Shown here: positions 32,481 to 63,334 of the stretch, in pieces
How positions within the stretch are numbered: the stretch's first letter is position 1
Layout of the letters: each line of letters begins with the position of its first letter
Assembly (NCBI GenBank): GCA_963720755.1
Contig: CAVRGP010000011.1
Coordinates: forward strand, 288,001 to 352,000
Direction: 5' to 3'
Length of the DNA: 64,000 bases
DNA from: an uncultured Chloroflexia bacterium
GTDB lineage: Bacteria > Chloroflexota > Limnocylindria > Limnocylindrales > CSP1-4
Translations under genes and position numbers: made by a program
Notes under the pieces: generated by a model
What the model was told of the DNA's origin: nothing
Database searches by the model: none
The model's input: the letters and a program-made list of their open reading frames with translations, nothing else

Positions 32481-33323
32481 TTGCGAGTGCAGTCCGGTCG
32501 CCCGAGGGCGGCCCTCGTCGCATCTCTCGCGGCGATCATCCTCGTCGGCGCCCTGGGCGTCGGATCGACCCTCGCGGCCGACCCGCCCGGTCAGGCACGG
32601 TTCCTGTGGGCTCTCGGCAAGGTCGAGTCCGGCGGCGACTACTTCGCCCTGAATCCGACCACCGGCGCGTACGGCAAGTACCAGATCATCCCGTCGAGCT
32701 GGAGGGCGTGGGCGAACCGGTACCTGGGTGATCCGGCGGCGAAGCCGACGCCCGGCAATCAGGAAGTGGTCGCGTCGTCCAAGGTGCGGGCGCTCTATCG
32801 CGGGCTGGATCGGTGGCGCCGGGTCGCCTACTGGTGGCTGACCGGCTCGAGCCAGACGGCGGGTTGGTCCGGAGCTGCCACGAGCTACGTGTCGCGGATC
32901 ATGGATCTGTATCGCTCCAGGGCCGGTGGAGGTCCGGGCACGCCGCTTTCGAAGCGCCATTCCTATTCCGAGAAGAGCCCGCGGATCGCCTATGCCGGAC
33001 GGTGGAAGTCAGCCACCTACGGCGGGTACGCCGGCGGCGCGGTCGCCTATTCGACGGCAGCGGGAGCGACCGCCACCTTCACCTTCACCGGCACGCGGAT
33101 CACCTGGTACGGGCCGGTCGGTCCGACCCGCGGTCGAGCGCGGGTCTTCGTGGATGGGACGCCGGTCAAGGTCGTCGATCTCCACGCGAGTTCGTTCACC
33201 GCCAGCAAGGCACTGTTCACGAGGCGCTGGTCGACCGCTGGTCAGCACACCCTCACGATCGAAGTCGTCGGGACGCCTGGTCGGCCATACGTCGCGATCG
33301 ATCGGTTGGTCGTGCTCGAGTAA
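32481..33323 (+). CDS. Secreted lysozyme-like/transglycosylase protein with a C-terminal beta-sandwich domain
   Basis: Signal peptide; VESGGDY...GAYGKYQI; TFTFTGT..ARVFVDG..HTLTI. Confidence 0.75.
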   Translation: MRVQSGRPRAALVASLAAIILVGALGVGSTLAADPPGQARFLWALGKVESGGDYFALNPTTGAYGKYQIIPSSWRAWANRYLGDPAAKPTPGNQEVVASSKVRALYRGLDRWRRVAYWWLTGSSQTAGWSGAATSYVSRIMDLYRSRAGGGPGTPLSKRHSYSEKSPRIAYAGRWKSATYGGYAGGAVAYSTAAGATATFTFTGTRITWYGPVGPTRGRARVFVDGTPVKVVDLHASSFTASKALFTRRWSTAGQHTLTIEVVGTPGRPYVAIDRLVVLE

Positions 33324-33361
33324 CGTGATGCGCAACCGTCCACGCGGATGCCTGACGACGC

Positions 33362-34558
33362 TCAGCGGTCGCGCGACCGCCAGGCATCGCGCACCTTGAT
33401 CCGACCGCCGACCTGGAGCACGGCTCCCGAGTAGATCCGGGCGCCGACCGAGAACAGCCCCCAGATGCCGAGCACGGTGATGACCATCGACAGGCCGATC
33501 TGCCACGGCGGGATCGCTCCGAAGGCGGCGCGCAGCGGCACGACGAATGGCGCCGACGGCGGGATGAACGTGGCGATCGTCGCCACGACGCCGGTCGGGT
33601 CGTCGAGGACGGAGAAGATGGCCACGAAGTAGCTCGCCATCGCGATCATCGATACCGGCGTCGAGGCATTCGACGCTTCTTCCGGTCTCGAAGCCAGGGC
33701 GCCGAGCGAGCCGAGCGCCGTGGCGTAGAGCGAGTAGCCGAGGATGAACCAGACCACCAACAGGGCGATCGCTCCAGGGGTCGTTCGCGGAAGCTCGACC
33801 TCGCTGGTCACCGACGTCGCGACGAGGGCGGCGACCATGAACACCGCGAGTTGGGCGATCCCGAGCACGCCGATCCCGAGGACCTTGCCCATGAGCAGAT
33901 CGCGCGCCCGGACGGTCGACAGGACGACTTCGACGACACGACTCTGCTTTTCCTCGACGACCCCTGTCAGGACGGTGAACCCGAAGCTGAAGATGCCGAC
34001 GAGGATGGCGATGGCGCCGATGTTGGCGACGATGAACTGGGCCTGATCCACTTCGGAACGGGCGTCGATCGTCGATATGACCGGAGGTTGCTGGGCAGCG
34101 GCCAGGCCGGCCTGATCGACGTCGCTGGGCGCCAGCACGCCCTGGATCCGCAATCCGATCGTCGCGGCCGACAGCATCTGCACGATGGCCGGATCGGCGT
34201 CCTTCTTGAAATGCACCTCGCCCGGTCCGCTCAGGTCGGCCGGCATGTCGACGACCACGTCGACGCTCCCGTCGACGAGGGCCGCGTCGGCCTGGGTAGC
34301 GGACTCGAACGTCGAGATCTCGACCGTCTGGTCGGATCGTTTCGCCACGGACTCGATGGCGACGTCGAGCCCGGGTGGAGCCGGCTGGACCACGCCGATC
34401 GTGGTGGTCGCATCGTCACCGCGCAGGATCGCCGGGATCACGAGCGATGCGACCACGATCGCGGTCGTGAACAGGACGCTGAGGATGTAGCCACGACTCC
34501 GTCCCCGTTCGAGGATCTCGCGGCGGGCGACCAGCCAGACGCTGCGCCAGCGCGGCAT
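33362..34558 (-). CDS. ABC-2 permease (NatB/YhaP-like)
   Basis: LVARRE; VEEKQSRVVEVVLS; GKVLG; RIYSGAVL. Confidence 0.9.
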   Translation of the reverse strand: MPRWRSVWLVARREILERGRSRGYILSVLFTTAIVVASLVIPAILRGDDATTTIGVVQPAPPGLDVAIESVAKRSDQTVEISTFESATQADAALVDGSVDVVVDMPADLSGPGEVHFKKDADPAIVQMLSAATIGLRIQGVLAPSDVDQAGLAAAQQPPVISTIDARSEVDQAQFIVANIGAIAILVGIFSFGFTVLTGVVEEKQSRVVEVVLSTVRARDLLMGKVLGIGVLGIAQLAVFMVAALVATSVTSEVELPRTTPGAIALLVVWFILGYSLYATALGSLGALASRPEEASNASTPVSMIAMASYFVAIFSVLDDPTGVVATIATFIPPSAPFVVPLRAAFGAIPPWQIGLSMVITVLGIWGLFSVGARIYSGAVLQVGGRIKVRDAWRSRDR

Positions 34559-35469
34559 CAGGCGACCTCGCCGGGCTCGCCCGGAGCGACGGCCTCCATG
34601 AACAACTCCGAGAGCCGCGGCGGTTGGTAGGCGAAGGTCCTGACTTCGCCGGCGGCCCTCGCCAGGGCAAGCAGATCGTCGAGGTCTTCCGACCGGTCGA
34701 CCAGGAGCTTGATCCTGTCGCCATCGCGCTCGACGACCATCACGTCCGGTCGATCGCGGAGCCAGGAGCCGCCCGATCCAGCAACGTCGATCTCGAGATG
34801 GCGGCGACCGGCCGCCGCCCGAAGCGCCTCGATCGCGCCGGACGCGACGATCCGTCCGCGCGCGATGATGACGACGTCCTCGCACACATCCTCGACGAGG
34901 TCGAGTTGGTGACTGGAGAAGATGACGCCGACGCCGGCTGCCGCACGCTCCCGGACGACCCGGGTCATCGTCGCGATGCCGATCGGGTCCAGGCCGGAGA
35001 ACGGTTCGTCGAGGACGAGCAGGGTCGGGTCGTGGACCAACGCCGTGGCGAGCTGGATCCGTTGCTGGTTGCCGTGCGACAGCTCCTCCAGCTTCGACTT
35101 CGCGCGGTCAGCCAGACCCATCTCGTCGAGCCAGCGGATGGTCGCGGCATCGGCCGCCTTGCCCGACATGCCGTGCTGCTGGGCGAAGTAGCTCAGCTGG
35201 TCCGCGACACGCATCCGAGGGTAGAGCCCGCGCTGTTCCGGCATGTATCCGAACCGCAGCCGGATATCGCGATCGACCGCCTTGCCGTTCCACCGGATGT
35301 CGCCGCGATCCGGTCGAGCGAGTCCGAAGATGCAGCGCATCGCGGTCGTCTTGCCCGCGCCGTTCGGACCCAGGAAGCCGACGACCCGACCCGGGACGGC
35401 CTGGAACGTGGCGCCGTCGAGGGCGACGACGCTCCCGTAGCGCTTGGCCAGGTCGACGATCTCGAGCAT
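34558..35469 (-). CDS. ABC ATP-binding protein (YhaQ/NatA-like)
   Basis: GPNGAGKTT, LSHGNQQR, LDEPFSGLD. Confidence 0.93.
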   Translation of the reverse strand: MLEIVDLAKRYGSVVALDGATFQAVPGRVVGFLGPNGAGKTTAMRCIFGLARPDRGDIRWNGKAVDRDIRLRFGYMPEQRGLYPRMRVADQLSYFAQQHGMSGKAADAATIRWLDEMGLADRAKSKLEELSHGNQQRIQLATALVHDPTLLVLDEPFSGLDPIGIATMTRVVRERAAAGVGVIFSSHQLDLVEDVCEDVVIIARGRIVASGAIEALRAAAGRRHLEIDVAGSGGSWLRDRPDVMVVERDGDRIKLLVDRSEDLDDLLALARAAGEVRTFAYQPPRLSELFMEAVAPGEPGEVA

Positions 35470-35484
35470 CGGAACCCCCCCCGC

Positions 35485-36699
35485 CTAGGCCACGTCGAGG
35501 ATCCGGTAGGCTCGCTCGCCGGCCGGGGTCTTGACGACCACGAAGTCGCCGATCTCCCGACCCACGAGGGCTCGACCAACCGGCGACGCCGACGAGATAC
35601 GGCCGCGCGCCGGCTCCGATTCGTCCGCCCCGACGATGGTATAGGTGACCGTCTCACCGTCGTCGTCCACGGTCACGACCGACCCGAGCCCGATCCTCGA
35701 GCCAGCAACCGGTGCGGCCACGATCACCGCTGAGCGCAGGCGTGCCTCGATCGCCTGGACTCGTCCCTCGAGGAACGATTGCTCCTCGCGCGCGGCGTGA
35801 TAGTCGGAGTTCTCCTTGAGGTCGCCGTGCTCCTTGGCTGTCCGGATCCGGGCGATCACCTGGGGGCGCTTGACCCGGGTCAGCTCGTCGAGTTCGGCGC
35901 GCAGCCGTTCCGCTCCCTCGGCGGTCAGCGCTTCCGCGACCAGCACCGGTGGCTGATCGTCGGCGGCCGGTGCCGCTTCGGTCGATACGGGCCGAGTCGG
36001 TCGCCTGGTCGGCCGGCGCTTTGGCTCGGGTGGATCGCCTCGAGCTCCCTCGGCGTCGCCGTCGGCGACGTTGACGATCCTGGTCGGTGGCGGAGGTGCC
36101 TCGACCGGCTCGACCAGCAGTGAACCGCTGATCCCGGTGATCTTGCGCTCGCCGGTCGGACGCCGGAGGTTCGCCCAGGGGAGGACGAGGTCGCGGTCCG
36201 GGAGTGCGGCCAGGTCCGCTTCCGGGACGCGTTCGGCGAAGGCCGAGAGCAGGGCATCCTCGTATTCCTCGGTGGCATCCGTCGCGGCCCACCAGATGCG
36301 CAGGTCGTCGAGCGAGCGCAGCGTCTTCAGCCAATGGCCGCCGGCATACGGCTTTCGATCCCCAAGCTCCGTCCGTGCCATGGCGCCGACTCGTCGGCCG
36401 ACCGAGACCTCGGACACGCCGATGTACAGGATCGGCCGAGACGGCAGCCAGAACGACGCGAGCCGAGCCGCGAGCGCCTTCGACGTCGGTCGCTGGTCAT
36501 CGAGCCGAAGGGTCTCGACGCGTTCGATCCACTTGCCGACCCGGGTCATCTCGATAGGGGCGCTCGCGACTGGCCCCGGCATCTCGATGATGAAGACGCC
36601 CGGACCCGGGGCGGGAACCTGGTGCCCCCACCGGCTGGGTCCATCGGCCATGAGGCCGATCGCGCGGAAGAGCGAGGCTGCGCCGATGTCGTTGGTCAT
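35485..36699 (-). CDS. greA: Transcription elongation factor GreA fused to an N-terminal GIY-YIG-like domain
   Basis: C-terminal LTAEG..LRAEL..KRP..I..AKEHGDLKENSDYHAAREEQ...ISSASPVGRALVG; N-terminal PGVF...LYIG..RR..GG..E...LPWAN. Confidence 0.85.
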   Translation of the reverse strand: MTNDIGAASLFRAIGLMADGPSRWGHQVPAPGPGVFIIEMPGPVASAPIEMTRVGKWIERVETLRLDDQRPTSKALAARLASFWLPSRPILYIGVSEVSVGRRVGAMARTELGDRKPYAGGHWLKTLRSLDDLRIWWAATDATEEYEDALLSAFAERVPEADLAALPDRDLVLPWANLRRPTGERKITGISGSLLVEPVEAPPPPTRIVNVADGDAEGARGDPPEPKRRPTRRPTRPVSTEAAPAADDQPPVLVAEALTAEGAERLRAELDELTRVKRPQVIARIRTAKEHGDLKENSDYHAAREEQSFLEGRVQAIEARLRSAVIVAAPVAGSRIGLGSVVTVDDDGETVTYTIVGADESEPARGRISSASPVGRALVGREIGDFVVVKTPAGERAYRILDVA

Positions 36700-36764
36700 C
36701 GGTCGATGGTACAGGTGACCGGCTCGCGCTATGGTGCGATCCACATGGACCGTCATCGCCCGTC

Positions 36765-38132
36765 ATGATCCGAGTCACCCGACGCGCCCTCCTGGTCATC
36801 GCGGTGGTCATGGTGGCCATCGGGATCTGGCTGGTGTCTCCTCGGTTCGGATCGTCCGGGGGTCCCCTCGCCACTCCGGAGACCGGCCAGGCCGCCTCGG
36901 CCGCAGTGACCGCGTCACCGGCCGACACGGGGACCTCCGGCCCGGGCTCAGGACAGCCCGTGGTCCCAAGCTCGACCGTCCCGCCTGCATCGCCGACGGC
37001 CAGTCCCGTCGCTCCAGCCGCGGCCCCACCGCCGAGCGCCACCCCGGCGTTGACCGCCGCGCTGGACGCGCGTCTCGAACGGCTGCGGGCGAAATACGGG
37101 ATGCCCGGCATCAGTGCCTCGATCCTGTTCGCCGACGGGACCAGCTGGCAAGGGACCGCGGGACTGGCGGACGTTGCCGCCGGCCGACCGGTGACACATG
37201 ACACGGCCTTCTCGGTGGCGAGCGTGTCCAAGACGTTCACGTCGGCGCTGATCCTGGCCCTCATCGAGGATGGCCGGCTCAGCCTGGATTCGACCGCGCG
37301 GACGTACCTCCCGGATCTCAAGATCAACCGGGCGATCACGGTCCGGGAACTGCTCGACCACACAAGCGGGCTGCGCGACTACTTCTACAACCCGACGATC
37401 GACCACGCGTTGCTCACCAAGCCGGCCGCAGTGTGGAGCGCCGCCCGGTCACTTCGCTACCTGGGGAAGCCGTATTCCAAGCCGGGCGTGTCGTGGCACT
37501 ACTCGAACACGAACTACTTGATCCTCGGCATGCTCGCGAAGGTCGTCGGTGGGGCGCCGGTCGCGGATCAACTCCGCGCCCGGTTCTTCGACCCGCTCGG
37601 GCTCGACCACACGTTCTACCAGTCGGTCGAGGCACCTCGGGGGCCGGTCGCACGGGGATATCGGTTCCTCGGCACGGACCCGTCCCTGCCGGCCATCGAT
37701 CTGTCGGATGGGACAGACGTCGTGCCGTTCACCTCGGTCGTCACGGCCGCCGGGGCAGCGGGTTCGATCGCGACCGATGCCGTCGACCTCGCTCGCTGGG
37801 CGAAGGCCCTGTACGCCGGCCAAGCCTTGTCACCAGTGTCGCGTGCGGCGATGGTCGCGGATCTCCAGCGCACCGCGCAGTACGCCCCCGGGGTCCGCTA
37901 CGGTCTTGGCGTCCAGTCCGTCGAAGTGGCCGGCCATCCCACCCTCGGCCATTCCGGCCGGTTCCTCGGCGCGCGTGCCGCGATGCGGTGGCTGCCGGAC
38001 GAACAGATCGCCATCTCGGTCCTGACCAACCAGAGCCGCAGTGACCCGAACGCGGTGGTCAGGGCGCTTCTCAAGGTCATCCTTCCGACGCCGACACCGA
38101 CCGCGTGTCCGACGTGCCCGGCTGCCCCCTGA
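36765..38132 (+). CDS. Membrane-anchored serine hydrolase (beta-lactamase / D,D-peptidase family)
   Basis: SVSK (SxxK), LLDHTSG, YSNTNY, GHSG; N-terminal TM helix and Pro/Ala linker. Confidence 0.9.
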   Translation: MIRVTRRALLVIAVVMVAIGIWLVSPRFGSSGGPLATPETGQAASAAVTASPADTGTSGPGSGQPVVPSSTVPPASPTASPVAPAAAPPPSATPALTAALDARLERLRAKYGMPGISASILFADGTSWQGTAGLADVAAGRPVTHDTAFSVASVSKTFTSALILALIEDGRLSLDSTARTYLPDLKINRAITVRELLDHTSGLRDYFYNPTIDHALLTKPAAVWSAARSLRYLGKPYSKPGVSWHYSNTNYLILGMLAKVVGGAPVADQLRARFFDPLGLDHTFYQSVEAPRGPVARGYRFLGTDPSLPAIDLSDGTDVVPFTSVVTAAGAAGSIATDAVDLARWAKALYAGQALSPVSRAAMVADLQRTAQYAPGVRYGLGVQSVEVAGHPTLGHSGRFLGARAAMRWLPDEQIAISVLTNQSRSDPNAVVRALLKVILPTPTPTACPTCPAAP

Positions 38133-38282
38133 CGAAGGCTGGTCGACCGAGTGCCGGTGGTGCTCGTTGGCAACGAACCCTCGCGGGGTACGTACCACCG
38201 CCGACGCACTTCGGTACCGACGGGCTCTTTCCGGCGATCGATGCCGCGACCAGACTGGCGAGAACCCACGACGGGGGTGAAG

Positions 38283-38819
38283 ATGACGGTCCAGGTCGAC
38301 GCGTACACGAGTGCAGGGTTGGCGAGGGGAATGCTCGGCTGGCCCGGGTCGCTCCGCGACGTGCTCGAGACCGGGACGCTCCTGCTCGAGGGTGCAGCCT
38401 GGCAGGGACTCGGGGCGTCGATGCCGGAGTCCATCCGATCGCTGTCCATCCCGAGCGACGATGTGCTGGTCGCGGTCGGGGACGAGGACCCGGGCGTCTC
38501 GGTCCACGCCGCCTGGCATCACATCCGTCTCGAGGCCGGACCGTATACGGTGGAAGGCGAGCTTCCGACCCAGCCCGGGTTCGACCCGGGTCGCGCGCTG
38601 ACCCGGCCGTCGGGTGAATTCCTCGAGTTACGCGACGTTCGGTTGACGTTGAGCGGTCGCCCCGACGGCGGCCTCGCGACCGGTCGTCACGCCCTGGTCA
38701 ATCGCTATGCGGTGGAACGGATCCAGGCCGATCTGATGCTCGGCTTCTTCTTTCCCGGGGCGACCGTCGATCCCGACCCGATCGGCGACGCCGTCTCCGC
38801 GCGGCCCGCGCAGCCCTGA
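38283..38819 (+). CDS. Hypothetical protein, DUF6812-like (paralog of 6111..6755)
   Basis: LEAGPYTVEG...FLELRDV...LVNR. Confidence 0.65.
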   Translation: MTVQVDAYTSAGLARGMLGWPGSLRDVLETGTLLLEGAAWQGLGASMPESIRSLSIPSDDVLVAVGDEDPGVSVHAAWHHIRLEAGPYTVEGELPTQPGFDPGRALTRPSGEFLELRDVRLTLSGRPDGGLATGRHALVNRYAVERIQADLMLGFFFPGATVDPDPIGDAVSARPAQP

Positions 38820-38822
38820 GCG

Positions 38823-40085
38823 TCAGCCGCCCGAACTCGGCGCTCCCGCTCGTCGGCGAACGGGCTTCCGGTGGGCGTGGTGTTCCGGGGCGGTCCGCGC
38901 GTGACCTGCCCGTGCGCCGAGCGGGCGGGGCTCGGCGCTCCGATCCGGGATGAACCCCTCCTCGACCGTCCAGGGGATGGCATGCTTGAGCATCCGCTGG
39001 ACACCGCGAAGGAGATCGGTCTCGTCGATGCAGACGAGCGAGATGGCCTCGCCGGTCGCCCCGGCCCGGCCCGTCCGTCCGATGCGATGGATGTAGTCCT
39101 GCGGGTTCCACGGCAATTCGAAGTTGACGACCACCGGCAGATCCTCGATGTCCAGTCCGCGTGCCGCCACATCGGTCGCGACGAGCACCCGGATCTCGCC
39201 TGACTTGAAGGCGGCCAGGGCTTTCGTCCGCTCGGGCTGGGATCGGTCGGAGTGGATCGCCACCGCGTCGAGACCCTCGCGATCGAGGCGCGTCGCCAGG
39301 CGGCTGGCCGCCAGCTTCGTCCGGGTGAAGACGAGGACCTGACGCAGGTCATCCTTCCGGATCAGGTGCGCCAGGAGGGCCTCCTTGCGGTCGCGATCGA
39401 CCGGGTAGACCAGTTGACGAACGGCTTCGGCCGCCGTATTGCGAGGGGCGACCTCGACGGTTGCCGGGTCGCGCAGGATGCCGCCCGACAGGCGCCGGAT
39501 GTCGTCCGAAAATGTGGCCGAGAACATGAGGTTCTGGCGTCTCTCCGGGAGCAGCGCGATGATCCGCTGGATATCCGGCAGGAAGCCCATGTCGAGCATG
39601 CGATCCGCCTCGTCGAGGACGAGGATCTCGACCTGACCGAGGTTGGCGACCCGCTGGCCGACGAGGTCGAGCAGCCGGCCTGGTGTCGCGACGAGGATCT
39701 CGACTCCGCCCCGCAGTGCCTTGATCTGCGGGTCCATCGGGATCCCGCCGTACACGACGGTCGAGCGAAGCGGTACCGTCCGGCCATAGGTCTGCACACT
39801 GGCATCGACCTGCATGGCAAGTTCCCGGGTGGGAACCAGAATGAGGACCCGGACCGGATGTCGAGCCGGGGAGAAACTGGTGTTGGCGTGCGCCCGGAGG
39901 CGGTCGAGGATCGGCAGCACGAAGGCGGCGGTCTTGCCGGTGCCCGTCTGCGCTGCGGCCAGGACGTCGCGGCCCTCGAGGACGAGCGGGATCGCTGCGG
40001 CCTGGACGGGGGTCGGGGTTTCGTACCTCTCCTCGGCGACCATGCGCACGAGGTCGGCCGAAAGGCCGAGCGAGTCGAAGGTCAA
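38823..40085 (-). CDS. DEAD-box RNA helicase (RhlE-like)
   Basis: AQTGTGKT, PTREL, TPGR, DEAD, SAT, ARGLD, HRIGRTGR; TTG start after AGGAG. Confidence 0.96.
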   Translation of the reverse strand: MTFDSLGLSADLVRMVAEERYETPTPVQAAAIPLVLEGRDVLAAAQTGTGKTAAFVLPILDRLRAHANTSFSPARHPVRVLILVPTRELAMQVDASVQTYGRTVPLRSTVVYGGIPMDPQIKALRGGVEILVATPGRLLDLVGQRVANLGQVEILVLDEADRMLDMGFLPDIQRIIALLPERRQNLMFSATFSDDIRRLSGGILRDPATVEVAPRNTAAEAVRQLVYPVDRDRKEALLAHLIRKDDLRQVLVFTRTKLAASRLATRLDREGLDAVAIHSDRSQPERTKALAAFKSGEIRVLVATDVAARGLDIEDLPVVVNFELPWNPQDYIHRIGRTGRAGATGEAISLVCIDETDLLRGVQRMLKHAIPWTVEEGFIPDRSAEPRPLGARAGHARTAPEHHAHRKPVRRRAGAPSSGG

Positions 40086-40213
40086 AGAATGCTCCTGTGT
40101 GGTCCGGCCGTCGGCGCCGGTCAGGAGCGCGACGGTCGTCCGATCAACGTGCACCGATGGGTGCGGGCGGCGCCGGACCGCCGGAGCATAGCGGAAATGA
40201 GTAGGATCGGGCC

Positions 40214-60208: not shown

Positions 60209-63334
<3,126 letters not shown>

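Follow-up and report, generated by a model that had tools for sequence, protein, structure and literature searches.

We describe a gene of an uncultured Chloroflexia bacterium in which a complete GreA is fused to an N-terminal domain that has, judging from a structural model and sequence comparisons, a divergent GIY-YIG fold. The gene lies on the minus strand of the window (the whole stretch of 64,000 nucleotides that was analysed), at 35485..36699, and its 404-aa product consists of three parts, namely a 205-aa N-terminal domain, a linker of ~50 aa and the complete GreA. With moderate confidence, we interpret this protein as a lineage-specific second Gre factor tethered to a nucleic-acid-binding module that was formerly a nuclease. 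No paper in the literature searched mentions GreA and GIY-YIG (as whole words) together, and the fusion is without prior description in that literature, in line with the initial annotation, which did not recognise the architecture as described.

A conserved fusion ending in a complete GreA

The coding sequence was delimited from the ORF list and its translation. The ORF runs from 36756 or 36699 to 35485, including the stop codon (35485-35487, minus strand, preceded by 404 aa), and the N-termini of the homologs favor the ATG at 36699 as the start. A chance ORF was dismissed because at least 1303 protein clusters match the N-terminal part at E<=1e-3 (among the 8000 best word-sharing candidates scored), and 118 of the 120 best-listed matches to this part also carry both GreA Pfam domains. 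A separate GreA could still be started internally, at an in-frame GTG at ~residue 250, where by-eye inspection revealed no evident Shine-Dalgarno sequence. A scan of 33000-37400 found neither promoter nor terminator, and no site resembling the SOS-box consensus GAAC-N4-GTTC was found upstream of the fused gene. Two such sites with one mismatch, at 35773 and 36122, both fall within the coding sequence.

Residues 258-404 (35488..35928, minus strand) make up the GreA, as indicated by Pfam, TIGR01462 and the secondary structure of the model. Pfam PF03449 (GreA_GreB_N) was matched at 90.5 bits over positions 3-71 of 71 (cut-off 24.5, E 8e-26), PF01272 (GreA_GreB) at 81.1 bits (cut-off 26.9, E 5.9e-23) and TIGR01462 over its full length at 158.9 bits (cut-off 139). 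The equivalog model NF001263 was likewise above its cut-off (149.6 vs 145), and the remaining equivalog models were under theirs, e.g. NF001261 (156.9 vs 167). In the AF2 model, helices 260-290 and 298-323 form the coiled-coil N-domain of GreA, which is followed by the globular C-domain. The acidic tip, Asp293-Leu-Lys-Glu296 (35812..35823, minus strand, with codons GAC and GAG for the two acidic residues), stands within GDLKEN, whose D293 and E296 we take to be the catalytic tip residues of GreA. All 50 aligned fused proteins share G292, D293, L294, E296, N297 and Y300. The protein does end, as read at the outset, in a complete GreA with the acidic tip intact, and this part is probably functional, to go by its sequence.

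The linker (residues 206-257; 35929..36084, minus strand) is rich in Pro, Arg and acidic residues and is predicted to be disordered. The full-length AF2 model has a pLDDT <50 at 214-222 and 227-255 and a pTM of 0.53, so that no fixed packing between the domains is predicted. Between the matches to the N-terminal domain and to GreA, its length varies from 42 to 99 aa (70 loci), and it includes a conserved acidic motif with the consensus VPDGDAxGARGEPP. The layout proposed by the initial annotation, a domain plus a Pro/Arg-rich linker, was confirmed, except that the domain extends to ~residue 205 and not ~190, with the linker at ~206-257.

The fusion is in frame and without stops in 70 of the 77 species-representative loci with room downstream, and of 11 related loci 10 are also in frame, which supports the earlier reading of a genuine and conserved single polypeptide. 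The seven out-of-frame loci are frameshifts that all come from a single series of assemblies, whose isolate names start with MFD, and we take them as probable assembly indels. Two separate genes and an assembly artefact were both ruled out by the 70/77 in-frame loci. Many of the homologs that appear 'short' or 'long' have Arg-rich out-of-frame tails (P0124, P0125, P0149, P0261, P0339).

Across the sampled genomes, the N-terminal domain was found in all 24 of the window's family (f1), its own genome counted, and in just four of the 377 others, three of these matches being marginal. The search of Chloroflexota genomes that the initial annotation had suggested places the domain in this family and shows it to be nearly absent elsewhere in the phylum. 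A second, stand-alone greA, which had also been suggested as something to look for, does coexist with the fusion, being present in 24/24 of the family's genomes, with a fused greA alongside in 21/24. The fused GreA domains group into a single clade (support 90/83), and their end branches measure 0.14-0.84, save for one zero-length row, as compared to 0-0.21 in the stand-alone greA. By these sequence comparisons, the fused GreA is a faster-evolving paralog kept beside the canonical stand-alone greA.

The synteny of the fused gene is conserved, with a divergent gene as the upstream neighbor in 77/80 loci and a convergent gene as the downstream neighbor in 56/72. Presence in 24/24 genomes of the family, rarity elsewhere and synteny together point to vertical, housekeeping-like inheritance. 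No conserved partner or repair gene was found in the neighborhood of the fusion loci. In the window, an ABC transporter follows the fused gene at 15 nt. We rejected an operon with this transporter as a conserved partner, as an ABC ATPase match was obtained in just 7/80 related loci. All carriers of the fusion are uncultured.

Fold and active-site residues of the N-terminal domain

The N-terminal domain (residues 1-205; 36085..36699, minus strand) was delimited using AF2, VIA-align and hhalign. Its AF2 model (pLDDT 94.2, pTM 0.89) contains the core elements E34-39, E90-96, H100-109, E134-139 and H143-156, which correspond in turn to the GIY strand, the YIG strand, the helix of the arginine, the linker strand and the helix of the glutamate, as well as an N-terminal extension made of a helix and a strand. 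An insertion of ~50 aa (residues 40-89; 36433..36582, minus strand), which starts directly past the conserved Glu39 and holds two helices, H51-60 and H73-81, separates the GIY from the YIG strand in the model's secondary structure.

Among 48,161 chains, VIA-align retrieved 16 at Z>=2, and the best seven of these are all GIY-YIG proteins: T4 EndoII (Z 7.4), the UvrC N-domain (6.2), GRXS16-N (5.9), I-TevI (5.9), Eco29kI (5.0), Hpy188I (4.0) and PD-T4-3 (3.8), all of them under 8, a range in which common arrangements may score according to the tool's own warning. GRXS16-N and PD-T4-3 are presumed to be GIY-YIG proteins, their structure titles not saying so. Meanwhile, hhalign of 284 N-terminal domains against 20 UvrC GIY-YIG domains gave a probability of 90.7% (E 1.3e-6) over residues 73 to 176 of our protein, and in this alignment the YIG motif, the Arg and the Glu fall in register. 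Because of the AF2 model, the top seven VIA-align matches and the alignment to UvrC, we assign to the N-terminal domain a divergent GIY-YIG fold, and the fold and motif order read from the letters in the initial annotation agree with this assignment.

Structural matches to GIY-YIG proteins were obtained by VIA-align (Z 7.4-3.8), though Foldseek against the PDB gave no match at E<=0.001, the best being Eco29kI (E 0.34, TM 0.28). Pfam and NCBIfam contain no family that matches the domain at E<=1, the GIY-YIG clan of Pfam did not match our protein even at E<=10, and 42 members of the N-domain family, when scanned leniently against Pfam, gave no GIY-YIG family. In a search of the window's own genome with PF01541, uvrC was the sole match. 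A profile search of the PDB sequences with the N-terminal domain returned only 1ywy, which at E 0.2 was taken as chance.

All the GIY-YIG hallmarks named by the initial annotation were located, in order: PGVF 33-36, LYIG 91-94, RR 102-103, GG 120-121, EEYEDALL 144-151 and LPWAN 173-177. The spacing needed amending, as seven residues and not six lead from the Gly of YIG to the first Arg. We tallied these positions in 125 fused homologs, listing the three commonest residues per position, and the resulting counts rest on related, non-independent sequences. Tyr92 of the YIG motif (36424..36426, minus strand) pairs with the YIG Tyr of UvrC, and together with G94 it matches the Y-V-G stretch of UvrC in the hhalign alignment; position 92 is Tyr in 114 homologs and Phe in 10, and Gly94 is kept in 123. 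Arg103 (36391..36393, minus strand), assigned as the catalytic Arg of the 'arginine helix' from its register with R-x-R-S-Y of UvrC, is kept in 123/125. Glu147 (36259..36261, minus strand) belongs to an acidic patch, EEYED (144-148), and is the equivalent of the metal-binding Glu, being paired by hhalign with the Glu in L-E-A-N-L-I of UvrC. It occurs in 118/125 fused homologs and in 48/48, 8/8 and 47/49 members of the other N-domain classes. Asn177 of LPWAN (36169..36171, minus strand; 116/125 fused, and 48/48, 8/8 and 45/49 in the other classes) is the presumed GIY-YIG Asn by motif position only, with a Glu147-Asn177 spacing of ~30 residues vs ~12 in the canonical case and an hhalign alignment that ends at 176, just before it.

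As far as its sequences indicate, the fused class has lost the GIY Tyr as well as the Tyr/His at Arg+4, the two residues that make up the water-activating pair. The position of the GIY-motif Tyr is taken by Phe36 (36592..36594, minus strand, codon TTC), with Phe in 115 of the 125 homologs, Tyr in 7 and Val in 2. This equivalence derives from the shared P-G-V-[YF] motif and the strand position, and has no profile support because the hhalign alignment begins at residue 73. At Arg+4, Met107 stands in for the canonical Tyr/His, and the fused homologs have Ile (65), Met (48) or Leu (10) there. Wherever Phe36 is present, position 107 is non-aromatic (186/186). The initial annotation had flagged the Phe in the first motif (115/125) as a possible sign of altered catalysis, and had missed the loss of the Arg+4 Tyr/His (123/125). 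In the N-domain tree, the aromatic residue at 107 changes twice and Tyr/Phe at 36 switches at least six times inside the derived clade, suggesting that the hydroxyl is no longer under selection. As stated in one study, the GIY Tyr is conserved across GIY-YIG nucleases, and in Hpy188I it is the proposed general base, for which a second Tyr would act as proton shuttle (PMC3045582). Cleavage by Eco29kI is abolished by Y49A and by H108F, according to another (PMC1952068), and the title of PDB 3nic names Y49F inactive.

Relatives of the domain and comparison with known systems

The family of the N-terminal domain comprises 1,106 representatives at 50% identity and extends beyond the GreA fusions. 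Its other members share 45-60% identity, are called 'hypothetical protein' in their sources and take three forms: stand-alone proteins of ~200 aa, proteins with a C-terminal module of ~70 aa ending in ...RWxIRC, and proteins with a module of ~110 aa containing ...WDPRxGPxERSG.... Basal forms retain the canonical set Tyr36/Tyr92/Arg103/Tyr-or-Phe107/Glu147/Asn177, and stand-alone relatives display GVY...LYIG..SL..R...YY. Intermediates such as P0175 and P0165 have Glu39 in addition to the full canonical pair. One stand-alone relative gave a sub-threshold match to Pfam GIY_YIG_2 (PF20815; 18 bits, cut-off 22.4, E 0.003). None of six scanned proteins (P0001 among them) matched any PADLOC family, and five of the six scanned against PHROGs were without match there; weak PHROGs matches of one stand-alone relative were to an endonuclease family (E 0.0034) and to a family of unknown function (E 0.047). 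The C-terminal modules of the relatives had Atlas scores of 0.78-0.88, under the lead threshold of 0.9, and PDB profile searches and lenient Pfam scans of these tails found no match. By appearance, the module with ERSG may be B3/EcoRII-N-like and that with RWxIRC excisionase-HTH-like, and the tails of P0326/P0374 may be HARE-HTH-like.

The usual picture of Gre factors is that of minimal two-domain proteins. GreA and GreB (TIGR01462; PF03449 + PF01272) share the coiled coil, the Asp/Glu tip and the globular C-domain with residues 258-404 and, unlike them, our protein has 257 extra N-terminal residues. The models NF004969 ('transcript cleavage factor/unknown domain fusion protein', 718 positions) and NF011309 (906 positions), which are presumably chlamydial and spirochaetal, also combine a C-terminal GreA with an uncharacterised N-terminal part. 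Our protein matches their GreA ends only (positions 570-704 and 757-900, respectively), and with no match beyond the GreA region their N-terminal parts are unrelated to the domain described here. With the GIY-YIG superfamily (UvrC, I-TevI, T4 EndoII, Eco29kI, Hpy188I), this domain has in common the fold, the element order, the Tyr and Gly of YIG, the Arg and the Glu, and presumably the Asn. It differs by the Phe in place of the GIY Tyr, Met/Ile/Leu at Arg+4, the 50-aa hairpin insertion, the N-terminal extension and the longer Glu-Asn spacing.

Kaur, Iyer, Burroughs and Aravind (2021) predicted conflict proteins made of a variable N-terminal effector, TPR, GreA/B-C and PIN, the effectors including REase and HNH DNases (PMC8195603). 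The common principle is a Gre module directed at the RNAP secondary channel combined with a nuclease-type domain, in genes that largely stand alone. Those systems have only the C-terminal domain of Gre, swappable effectors and rapid evolution (PMC8195603), whereas our protein has a whole GreA, one fixed and degenerate GIY-YIG domain and a vertical, syntenic inheritance. No TPR or PIN was found in it, as Pfam at E<=1 detected only PF03449 and PF01272 and the model ends at the Gre C-domain; the PIN version is called 'hitherto undetected' (PMC8195603) and might be missed by Pfam, but our protein has no spare residues to accommodate one.

Possible roles of the fused protein

From the architecture, fold, residue pattern, conservation and paralogy observed in this analysis, we infer that the fused protein binds RNAP and nucleic acid and that it has lost catalysis. 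In Gre-RNAP structures, the N-terminus of GreA sits outside the RNAP secondary channel. We postulate that the GreA part docks on the rim of this channel and that its acidic coiled-coil tip would enter and stimulate the cleavage of backtracked transcripts, while the GIY-YIG-fold domain would hang from the GreA N-terminus by a disordered tether of ~50 residues. This domain would have descended from canonical-looking GIY-YIG proteins. In the GreA-fusion clade, it appears to have lost the water-activating pair, kept those residues by which the scissile phosphate and the metal would be bound (the YIG Tyr and Gly, the Arg, the Glu and the presumed Asn) and gained conserved acidic residues (Glu39, EEYED). 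Because that pair is lost and the phosphate and metal residues are kept, we read it as a probable binder of the nucleic-acid backbone that is a former nuclease, or at most one of very low speed, and not as a canonical endonuclease. It may tie or direct the cleavage factor to those RNAP complexes in which a particular structure of DNA or RNA is exposed. Of the 'nuclease or nucleic-acid-binding module' that the initial annotation envisaged at RNAP, the binding half fits better, the nuclease half being at odds with Phe36, the Arg+4 loss and the inactive Eco29kI mutants. A role in transcription-coupled repair or R-loop resolution would be pure conjecture. The retention of four to five canonical residues at 91-98% exceeds the needs of a mere scaffold and runs counter to an ex-nuclease, as it could mean persisting catalysis. 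In addition, the N-terminal domain is not basic (net charge -2 in our protein, class median 0), which would be unusual in a DNA binder.

It is possible, if doubtful, that the domain is instead an active nuclease tethered to RNAP, with Glu39 or the EEYED cluster replacing the Tyr/Tyr relay as general base. It would then cut DNA near stalled RNAP (transcription-coupled incision, R-loop, conflict) or the RNA 3' segment that is pushed out through the secondary channel. The conservation of Y92, G94, R103, E147 and N177 at 91-98% is consistent with such activity. So is the distribution of Glu39, which is present in 125/125 fused homologs and always accompanies Phe36 (186/186), as compensation predicts, and which P0175 and P0165 pair with the full canonical residues. 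The joining of the family to various small C-terminal modules is also typical of modular nucleases. However, the co-variation of Glu39 and Phe36 is clade-level and thus gives no independent evidence of compensation, and residue 39, three along the strand from 36, would in a regular strand be expected to face the opposite side of the sheet. The repeated Tyr/Phe switches (at least six) in the derived clade look like relaxed constraint and not like a fixed new mechanism, and repair genes are absent from the neighborhood. Both the conservation of the GIY Tyr across GIY-YIG nucleases (PMC3045582) and the inactivity of Eco29kI carrying Y49A or H108F (PMC1952068) or Y49F (by the title of PDB 3nic) also argue against this alternative. 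An active site re-invented around a Glu39/EEYED carboxylate base, in a nuclease that GreA would station on backtracked complexes at their secondary channel, is in our judgment unlikely. If true, the 50-residue tether would allow the nuclease to cut into DNA close by, or else to shorten the RNA 3' segment that long backtracks extrude. This would amount to a Gre-dependent transcription-coupled incision or to rescue of a 'GreB-like' kind through an external nuclease; to our knowledge, neither is known in bacteria.

We consider it quite improbable that the domain serves protein interaction or regulation, its EEYED/Glu39 surface and the linker motif binding a partner so as to recruit, sequester or gate GreA. 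The loss of the catalytic pair, the neutral to acidic charge, the short conserved motif within the disordered linker, and the acidic patch (E39, E144, E145, D148) and WW pair (136-137), which are conserved in the derived clade only, would all suit such a module. It leaves the retention of Arg103, Glu147, Asn177, Tyr92 and Gly94 without explanation, no conserved neighbor offers itself as a partner (divergent upstream in 77/80 loci, convergent downstream in 56/72), and no interdomain contact is predicted. By analogy with GreA/B-C systems that send effector nucleases to virus-hijacked RNAP, the protein might also act in defence against invaders, which we regard as very improbable. The predicted effector + TPR + GreA/B-C + PIN proteins provide the precedent, and like those systems (PMC8195603), the fused gene has no conserved same-strand partner. 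Against a defence role are the lack of TPR and PIN, the presence of an entire GreA, coiled coil and tip included, the degenerate effector domain, the scans of six proteins without PADLOC match and, in five of six, without PHROGs match, and an inheritance that is vertical and not patchy (24/24 in one family, near-absent elsewhere, syntenic).

Our preferred reading of a second Gre factor with a nucleic-acid-binding former nuclease has implications for both of its parts. The N-terminal domain adds to the GIY-YIG superfamily a new branch of considerable size, which is invisible to Pfam and in which the stepwise loss of the catalytic proton relay can be traced. Meanwhile, an entire family of bacteria maintains an additional Gre factor that is permanently linked to a GIY-YIG-derived domain. 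If this domain binds or cuts nucleic acid near stalled RNAP, the fusion would constitute an undescribed physical link between transcript rescue and DNA or RNA processing.

The fusion gene and its two domains

Where the initial annotation had located the gene, the minus-strand open reading frame spans 35485..36756. Its start codon was placed at ATG 36699, and not at the upstream ATG 36756, since the N-termini of homologous proteins align there; the gene (35485..36699) thus encodes a protein of 404 residues (P0001). Residues 258-404 of this protein constitute a complete GreA. Both GreA_GreB_N (90.5 bits) and GreA_GreB (81.1 bits) of Pfam were detected far above their gathering scores, and NCBIfam TIGR01462 (cut-off 139) reached 158.9 bits. 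The protein has the tip sequence G-D-L-K-E-N, and G292, D293, L294, E296, N297, and Y300 do not vary among 50 aligned fused homologs. These results bear out the description of the C-terminal part as a complete GreA with an intact tip.

The N-terminal domain (residues 1-205) had been described as GIY-YIG-like. It matched nothing in Pfam, NCBIfam, PADLOC, or PHROGs, and across the genome of origin the Pfam GIY-YIG model detected uvrC only. An AF2 model of the domain, derived from 42 sequences, reached a pLDDT of 94.2 and a pTM of 0.89. Comparison with 48,161 chains by VIA-align, which is independent of Foldseek, yielded 16 chains with Z ≥ 2, the best seven being T4 EndoII (Z 7.4, 107 aligned residues, rmsd 2.8), the UvrC GIY-YIG domain (Z 6.2), the GRXS16 N-domain (Z 5.9), I-TevI (Z 5.9), Eco29kI (Z 5.0), Hpy188I (Z 4.0), and PD-T4-3 (Z 3.8), all of them below the Z of 8 under which the tool warns that a match can reflect a common arrangement. 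We take GRXS16-N and PD-T4-3 to be GIY-YIG proteins. Foldseek retrieved no significant match in the PDB; its best hit was Eco29kI (E 0.34), which also occupied eight of the 12 top rows.

Profile-profile alignment of 284 N-domains with 20 UvrC GIY-YIG domains gave a probability of 90.7% (E 1.3e-6), in a register that pairs Y92 with the YIG Tyr, R103 with the Arg, M107 with the Tyr at Arg+4, and E147 with the Glu. Stand-alone relatives of about 200 residues resemble textbook GIY-YIG proteins, one of them falling just under the Pfam GIY_YIG_2 cut-off (E 0.003, 18 bits versus 22.4). The modelled topology comprises a strand (34-39), a 50-residue two-helix insertion, a strand (90-96), a helix (100-109), a strand (134-139), and a helix (143-156), and fits the GIY-YIG core plus an N-terminal extension. 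Taken together, the structural matches, the UvrC alignment, the stand-alone relatives, and the predicted topology make the assignment to the GIY-YIG fold sound, as a new branch of the superfamily that goes undetected by Pfam. This branch counts 1,106 representatives at 50% identity (E ≤ 1e-3). Every motif originally listed for the domain was found, and in the listed order; the spacing from the Gly of YIG to the first Arg is seven residues and not six. In two profile searches, residues 33-72, from the GIY strand into the beginning of the insertion, also gave a weak match (E 0.2 and 0.81) to a hypothetical protein of 74 aa, PA2021 (PDB 1ywy); this is probably due to chance.

Conservation, paralogy, and genomic neighbourhood

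Of 8000 candidates scored in a search with residues 1-260, 1303 protein clusters matched at E ≤ 1e-3, and 118 of the 120 best clusters listed, 391-541 aa long, carried both GreA Pfam domains. The relatives encode a single polypeptide and not two separate genes. In 10 of 11 related-genome loci, the N-domain and GreA share one frame, the exception (L009) having the N-domain without GreA. A second, independent set of 80 species-representative loci contained 70 with both parts in one frame and no intervening stop, three that end at a contig edge, and seven that are frameshifted (L056, L058, L072, L088, L092, L106, and L119). The latter all belong to one assembly series, with MFD isolate names, and are probably indel errors of assembly in GC-rich sequence. 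Arg-rich out-of-frame tails in five database proteins (P0124, P0125, P0149, P0261, and P0339) probably have the same cause. The distance between the N-domain and GreA matches varies from 42 to 99 residues across loci, which indicates that the linker varies in length without loss of the frame. All of the 80 best records derive from uncultured MAGs, labelled mostly Chloroflexota, Chloroflexia, or Limnocylindria/Limnocylindrales, with a few others. The fusion is genuine, it is ancient within one uncultured family, and both of its halves are under selection.

A canonical stand-alone greA, for which the initial annotation had suggested a check, exists as well, elsewhere on the same contig (173.1 bits). 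GreA matches occurred in 80 of the 81 sampled genomes of the class, a tally that includes one genome flagged as unpublished (G443). Within the family of the window (f1), all 24 genomes, that of the window included, encode stand-alone greA and the N-domain, and 21 of them have the fused copy as well; in the other three (G088, G245, and G253), the N-domain was seen and a second GreA match was not found. Nearly all of the 57 genomes of other families have a single full-length greA, and in eight there is an additional match that is partial or weaker. The N-domain occurred in only 4 of 377 other sampled Chloroflexota genomes, three of these matches being marginal (E 6e-5 to 6e-4). Two family genomes (G205 and G253) have two N-domain matches each, and the extra copy of the latter (G253:C1:673286-673741) holds an in-frame TGA. 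The fusion protein is therefore a second Gre factor beside stand-alone GreA, and not the only one.

Among 32 GreA domains placed on a tree, the fused sequences (11) form one group (support 90/83) and the stand-alone sequences of f1 (11) another (87/86), with end branches of 0.14-0.84 for the fused copies (one zero-length row aside) versus 0-0.21 for the stand-alone ones. This grouping and these branch lengths indicate that the fusion arose once and evolves faster than the housekeeping greA, yet keeps its tip. Family f2, the sister family with small genomes (L049 and L050; 1.1-1.4 Mb), has a single greA that groups with the fused clade (99/96). Its branch is very long (1.12), and the grouping may reflect long-branch attraction or may be a sign that the paralogs predate the family split.

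The upstream block (36765-40154) is strongly syntenic across the family. It contains a divergent gene annotated by eye as a beta-lactamase-like serine hydrolase (36765-38132; 77 of 80 loci), an open reading frame at 38151-38819 (69/80), and, also annotated by eye, a DEAD-box helicase (61/80). On the downstream side, 72 loci extend for 600 nt or more, and in 56 of them a convergent gene resembles, by eye, a response regulator of the receiver plus LuxR type. In the window, the fusion gene is followed after a 15-nt G-rich gap by what appear by eye to be an ABC-transporter ATPase (34558-35469) and an ABC-2-type permease (together 33362-35469, minus strand); the ATPase was matched in only 7 of 80 related loci, and this adjacency is local. 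No DNA-repair or defence genes were found associated with the fusion gene among the loci examined, no SOS-box-like site (GAAC-N4-GTTC) upstream of it, and no promoter or terminator consensus near it. From these observations, the fusion gene looks like a stand-alone, vertically inherited function. Elsewhere in the window, two near-matches to GAAC-N4-GTTC lie 1 nt apart at 62138-62162 (GAACATGTATTC and GAACACGGGTTG) and could represent an SOS/LexA-type operator; across the whole window, 36 matches were found versus 23.2 expected.

Active-site residues of the N-terminal domain

N-domains were extracted from 382 proteins, of which 284 near-complete ones were kept and 98 partial ones dropped. Simple patterns in the sequence after the domain assigned 126 to the GreA class, 48 to RWxIRC (tail of ~70 aa ending RWxIRC), 8 to ERSG (tail of ~110 aa with an ERSG motif), and 49 to 'alone' (tail under 35 residues), which the N-domain tree shows to contain both genuine 200-aa proteins and pieces of fused genes; 53 had unclassified or frameshifted tails. 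Outside the window, at least three further kinds of small module occur C-terminal to the N-domain (P0215, P0175, P0376, P0326, and relatives), namely one of ~70 aa that ends in RWxIRC, one of ~110 aa that contains WDPRxGPxERSG, and a tail resembling an HTH, none of which was recognised in the libraries searched.

Among 125 fused homologs, the commonest residues are Phe (115), Tyr (7), and Val (2) at the GIY Tyr position 36, and Ile (65), Met (48), and Leu (10) at position 107, the Arg+4 Tyr/His; the other positions keep Tyr92 (114, with Phe in 10), Gly94 (123), Arg103 (123), the metal-binding Glu147 (118), and Asn177 (116). Thus the Phe substitution noted initially in the first motif holds for the class, and the Arg+4 Tyr/His is lost too, so that altered catalysis seems plausible. 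All eight ERSG-class domains have Tyr36, Tyr or Phe at 107, Tyr92, Arg103, Glu147, and Asn177. In 283 aligned sequences, Phe36 occurs exclusively with Glu39 (186/186) and with a non-aromatic residue at 107 (186/186), and Tyr36 is present in 42 of the 43 that lack an acidic residue at 39. A tree of 96 N-domains (>80% identical or gappy rows removed, unclassified class left out), obtained by a quick search and with many weak forks, places canonical forms basally and every GreA fusion inside one derived clade (58 rows, support 90). On it, the aromatic at 107 changed twice and Tyr/Phe at 36 at least six times. The derived clade gained conserved acidic residues, namely Glu39 (125/125 fused homologs), E144, E145, and D148. 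All of these counts are drawn from related sequences and describe clades, not independent events.

In the available text on the Hpy188I-DNA structure, the GIY Tyr is proposed to act as general base with a second Tyr shuttling its proton, the Arg positions the water and phosphate, the Glu anchors a single metal, and the 'Y' of motif 1 is described as conserved family-wide (PMC3045582). For Eco29kI, the available text reports undetectable activity for Y49A, H108F, and E142A, residual activity of ~2% for R104A and ~10% for N154L, and retained DNA binding in the mutants (PMC1952068); the title of PDB 3nic reads 'inactive variant Y49F'. Set against these roles, the residue tallies indicate that, in the fused class, the residues that activate water are precisely those that are gone, and that those holding the phosphate and the metal remain. 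This is the pattern to be expected for an enzyme turned binding module, and the free Tyr/Phe interchange after loss of the Arg+4 aromatic fits relaxed selection on the hydroxyl.

A second Gre factor with a tethered domain

In the full-length AF2 model (pLDDT 84.5, pTM 0.53), two domains are modelled with confidence, a further segment is disordered (pLDDT <50 at 214-222 and 227-255), and there is no fixed interdomain packing. Amid disorder and variable length, the linker (35929-36084; residues 206-257) holds a conserved acidic motif of consensus VPDGDAxGARGEPP, which may be a docking motif. A similar stretch also follows the N-domain in the RWxIRC class. In Gre-RNAP structures, the Gre N-terminus stays outside the enzyme, where the secondary channel opens, so that a domain attached there through ~50 residues of tether should leave insertion of the coiled coil unblocked. 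From there, DNA or extruded RNA in the vicinity of the polymerase could be within reach of the N-domain.

Our best reading, held with moderate confidence, is that of a second Gre factor whose body would stimulate transcript cleavage, and in which a nucleic-acid-binding ex-nuclease domain would target or anchor that body. The initial annotation had proposed a nuclease or nucleic-acid-binding module brought to RNAP. The coherent loss of the catalytic proton relay weakens the nuclease idea, and the phosphate and metal residues are retained; an active nuclease with a non-canonical mechanism, for which the gained acidic residues could in principle supply a new base, seems to us rather unlikely. We regard it as improbable that the N-domain is a protein-interaction or regulatory domain, and as very improbable that the fusion is a defence protein. 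Kaur et al. 2021 predicted conflict systems that, in the available text, combine variable effectors (DNases included) with TPR, a GreA/B C-terminal domain, and PIN (PMC8195603). As far as that text goes, they share with the fusion the principle that a Gre module brings a nuclease to RNAP, and differ from it in architecture, GreA completeness, and evolutionary behaviour.

NCBIfam NF004969 and NF011309 are already-named GreA proteins with long, uncharacterised N-terminal parts, and our protein matches only their GreA ends. Among 8.09 million PMC papers and 0.36 million bioRxiv preprints, none contained both GreA and GIY-YIG as whole words, or Limnocylindria together with GreA; a wider search found nothing relevant beyond the eLife paper. 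In agreement with the initial impression of an unfamiliar architecture, the GreA/GIY-YIG fusion is apparently undescribed. We propose that the protein is a Gre factor that carries an accessory domain, and that this domain represents a new, degenerate branch within the GIY-YIG superfamily.
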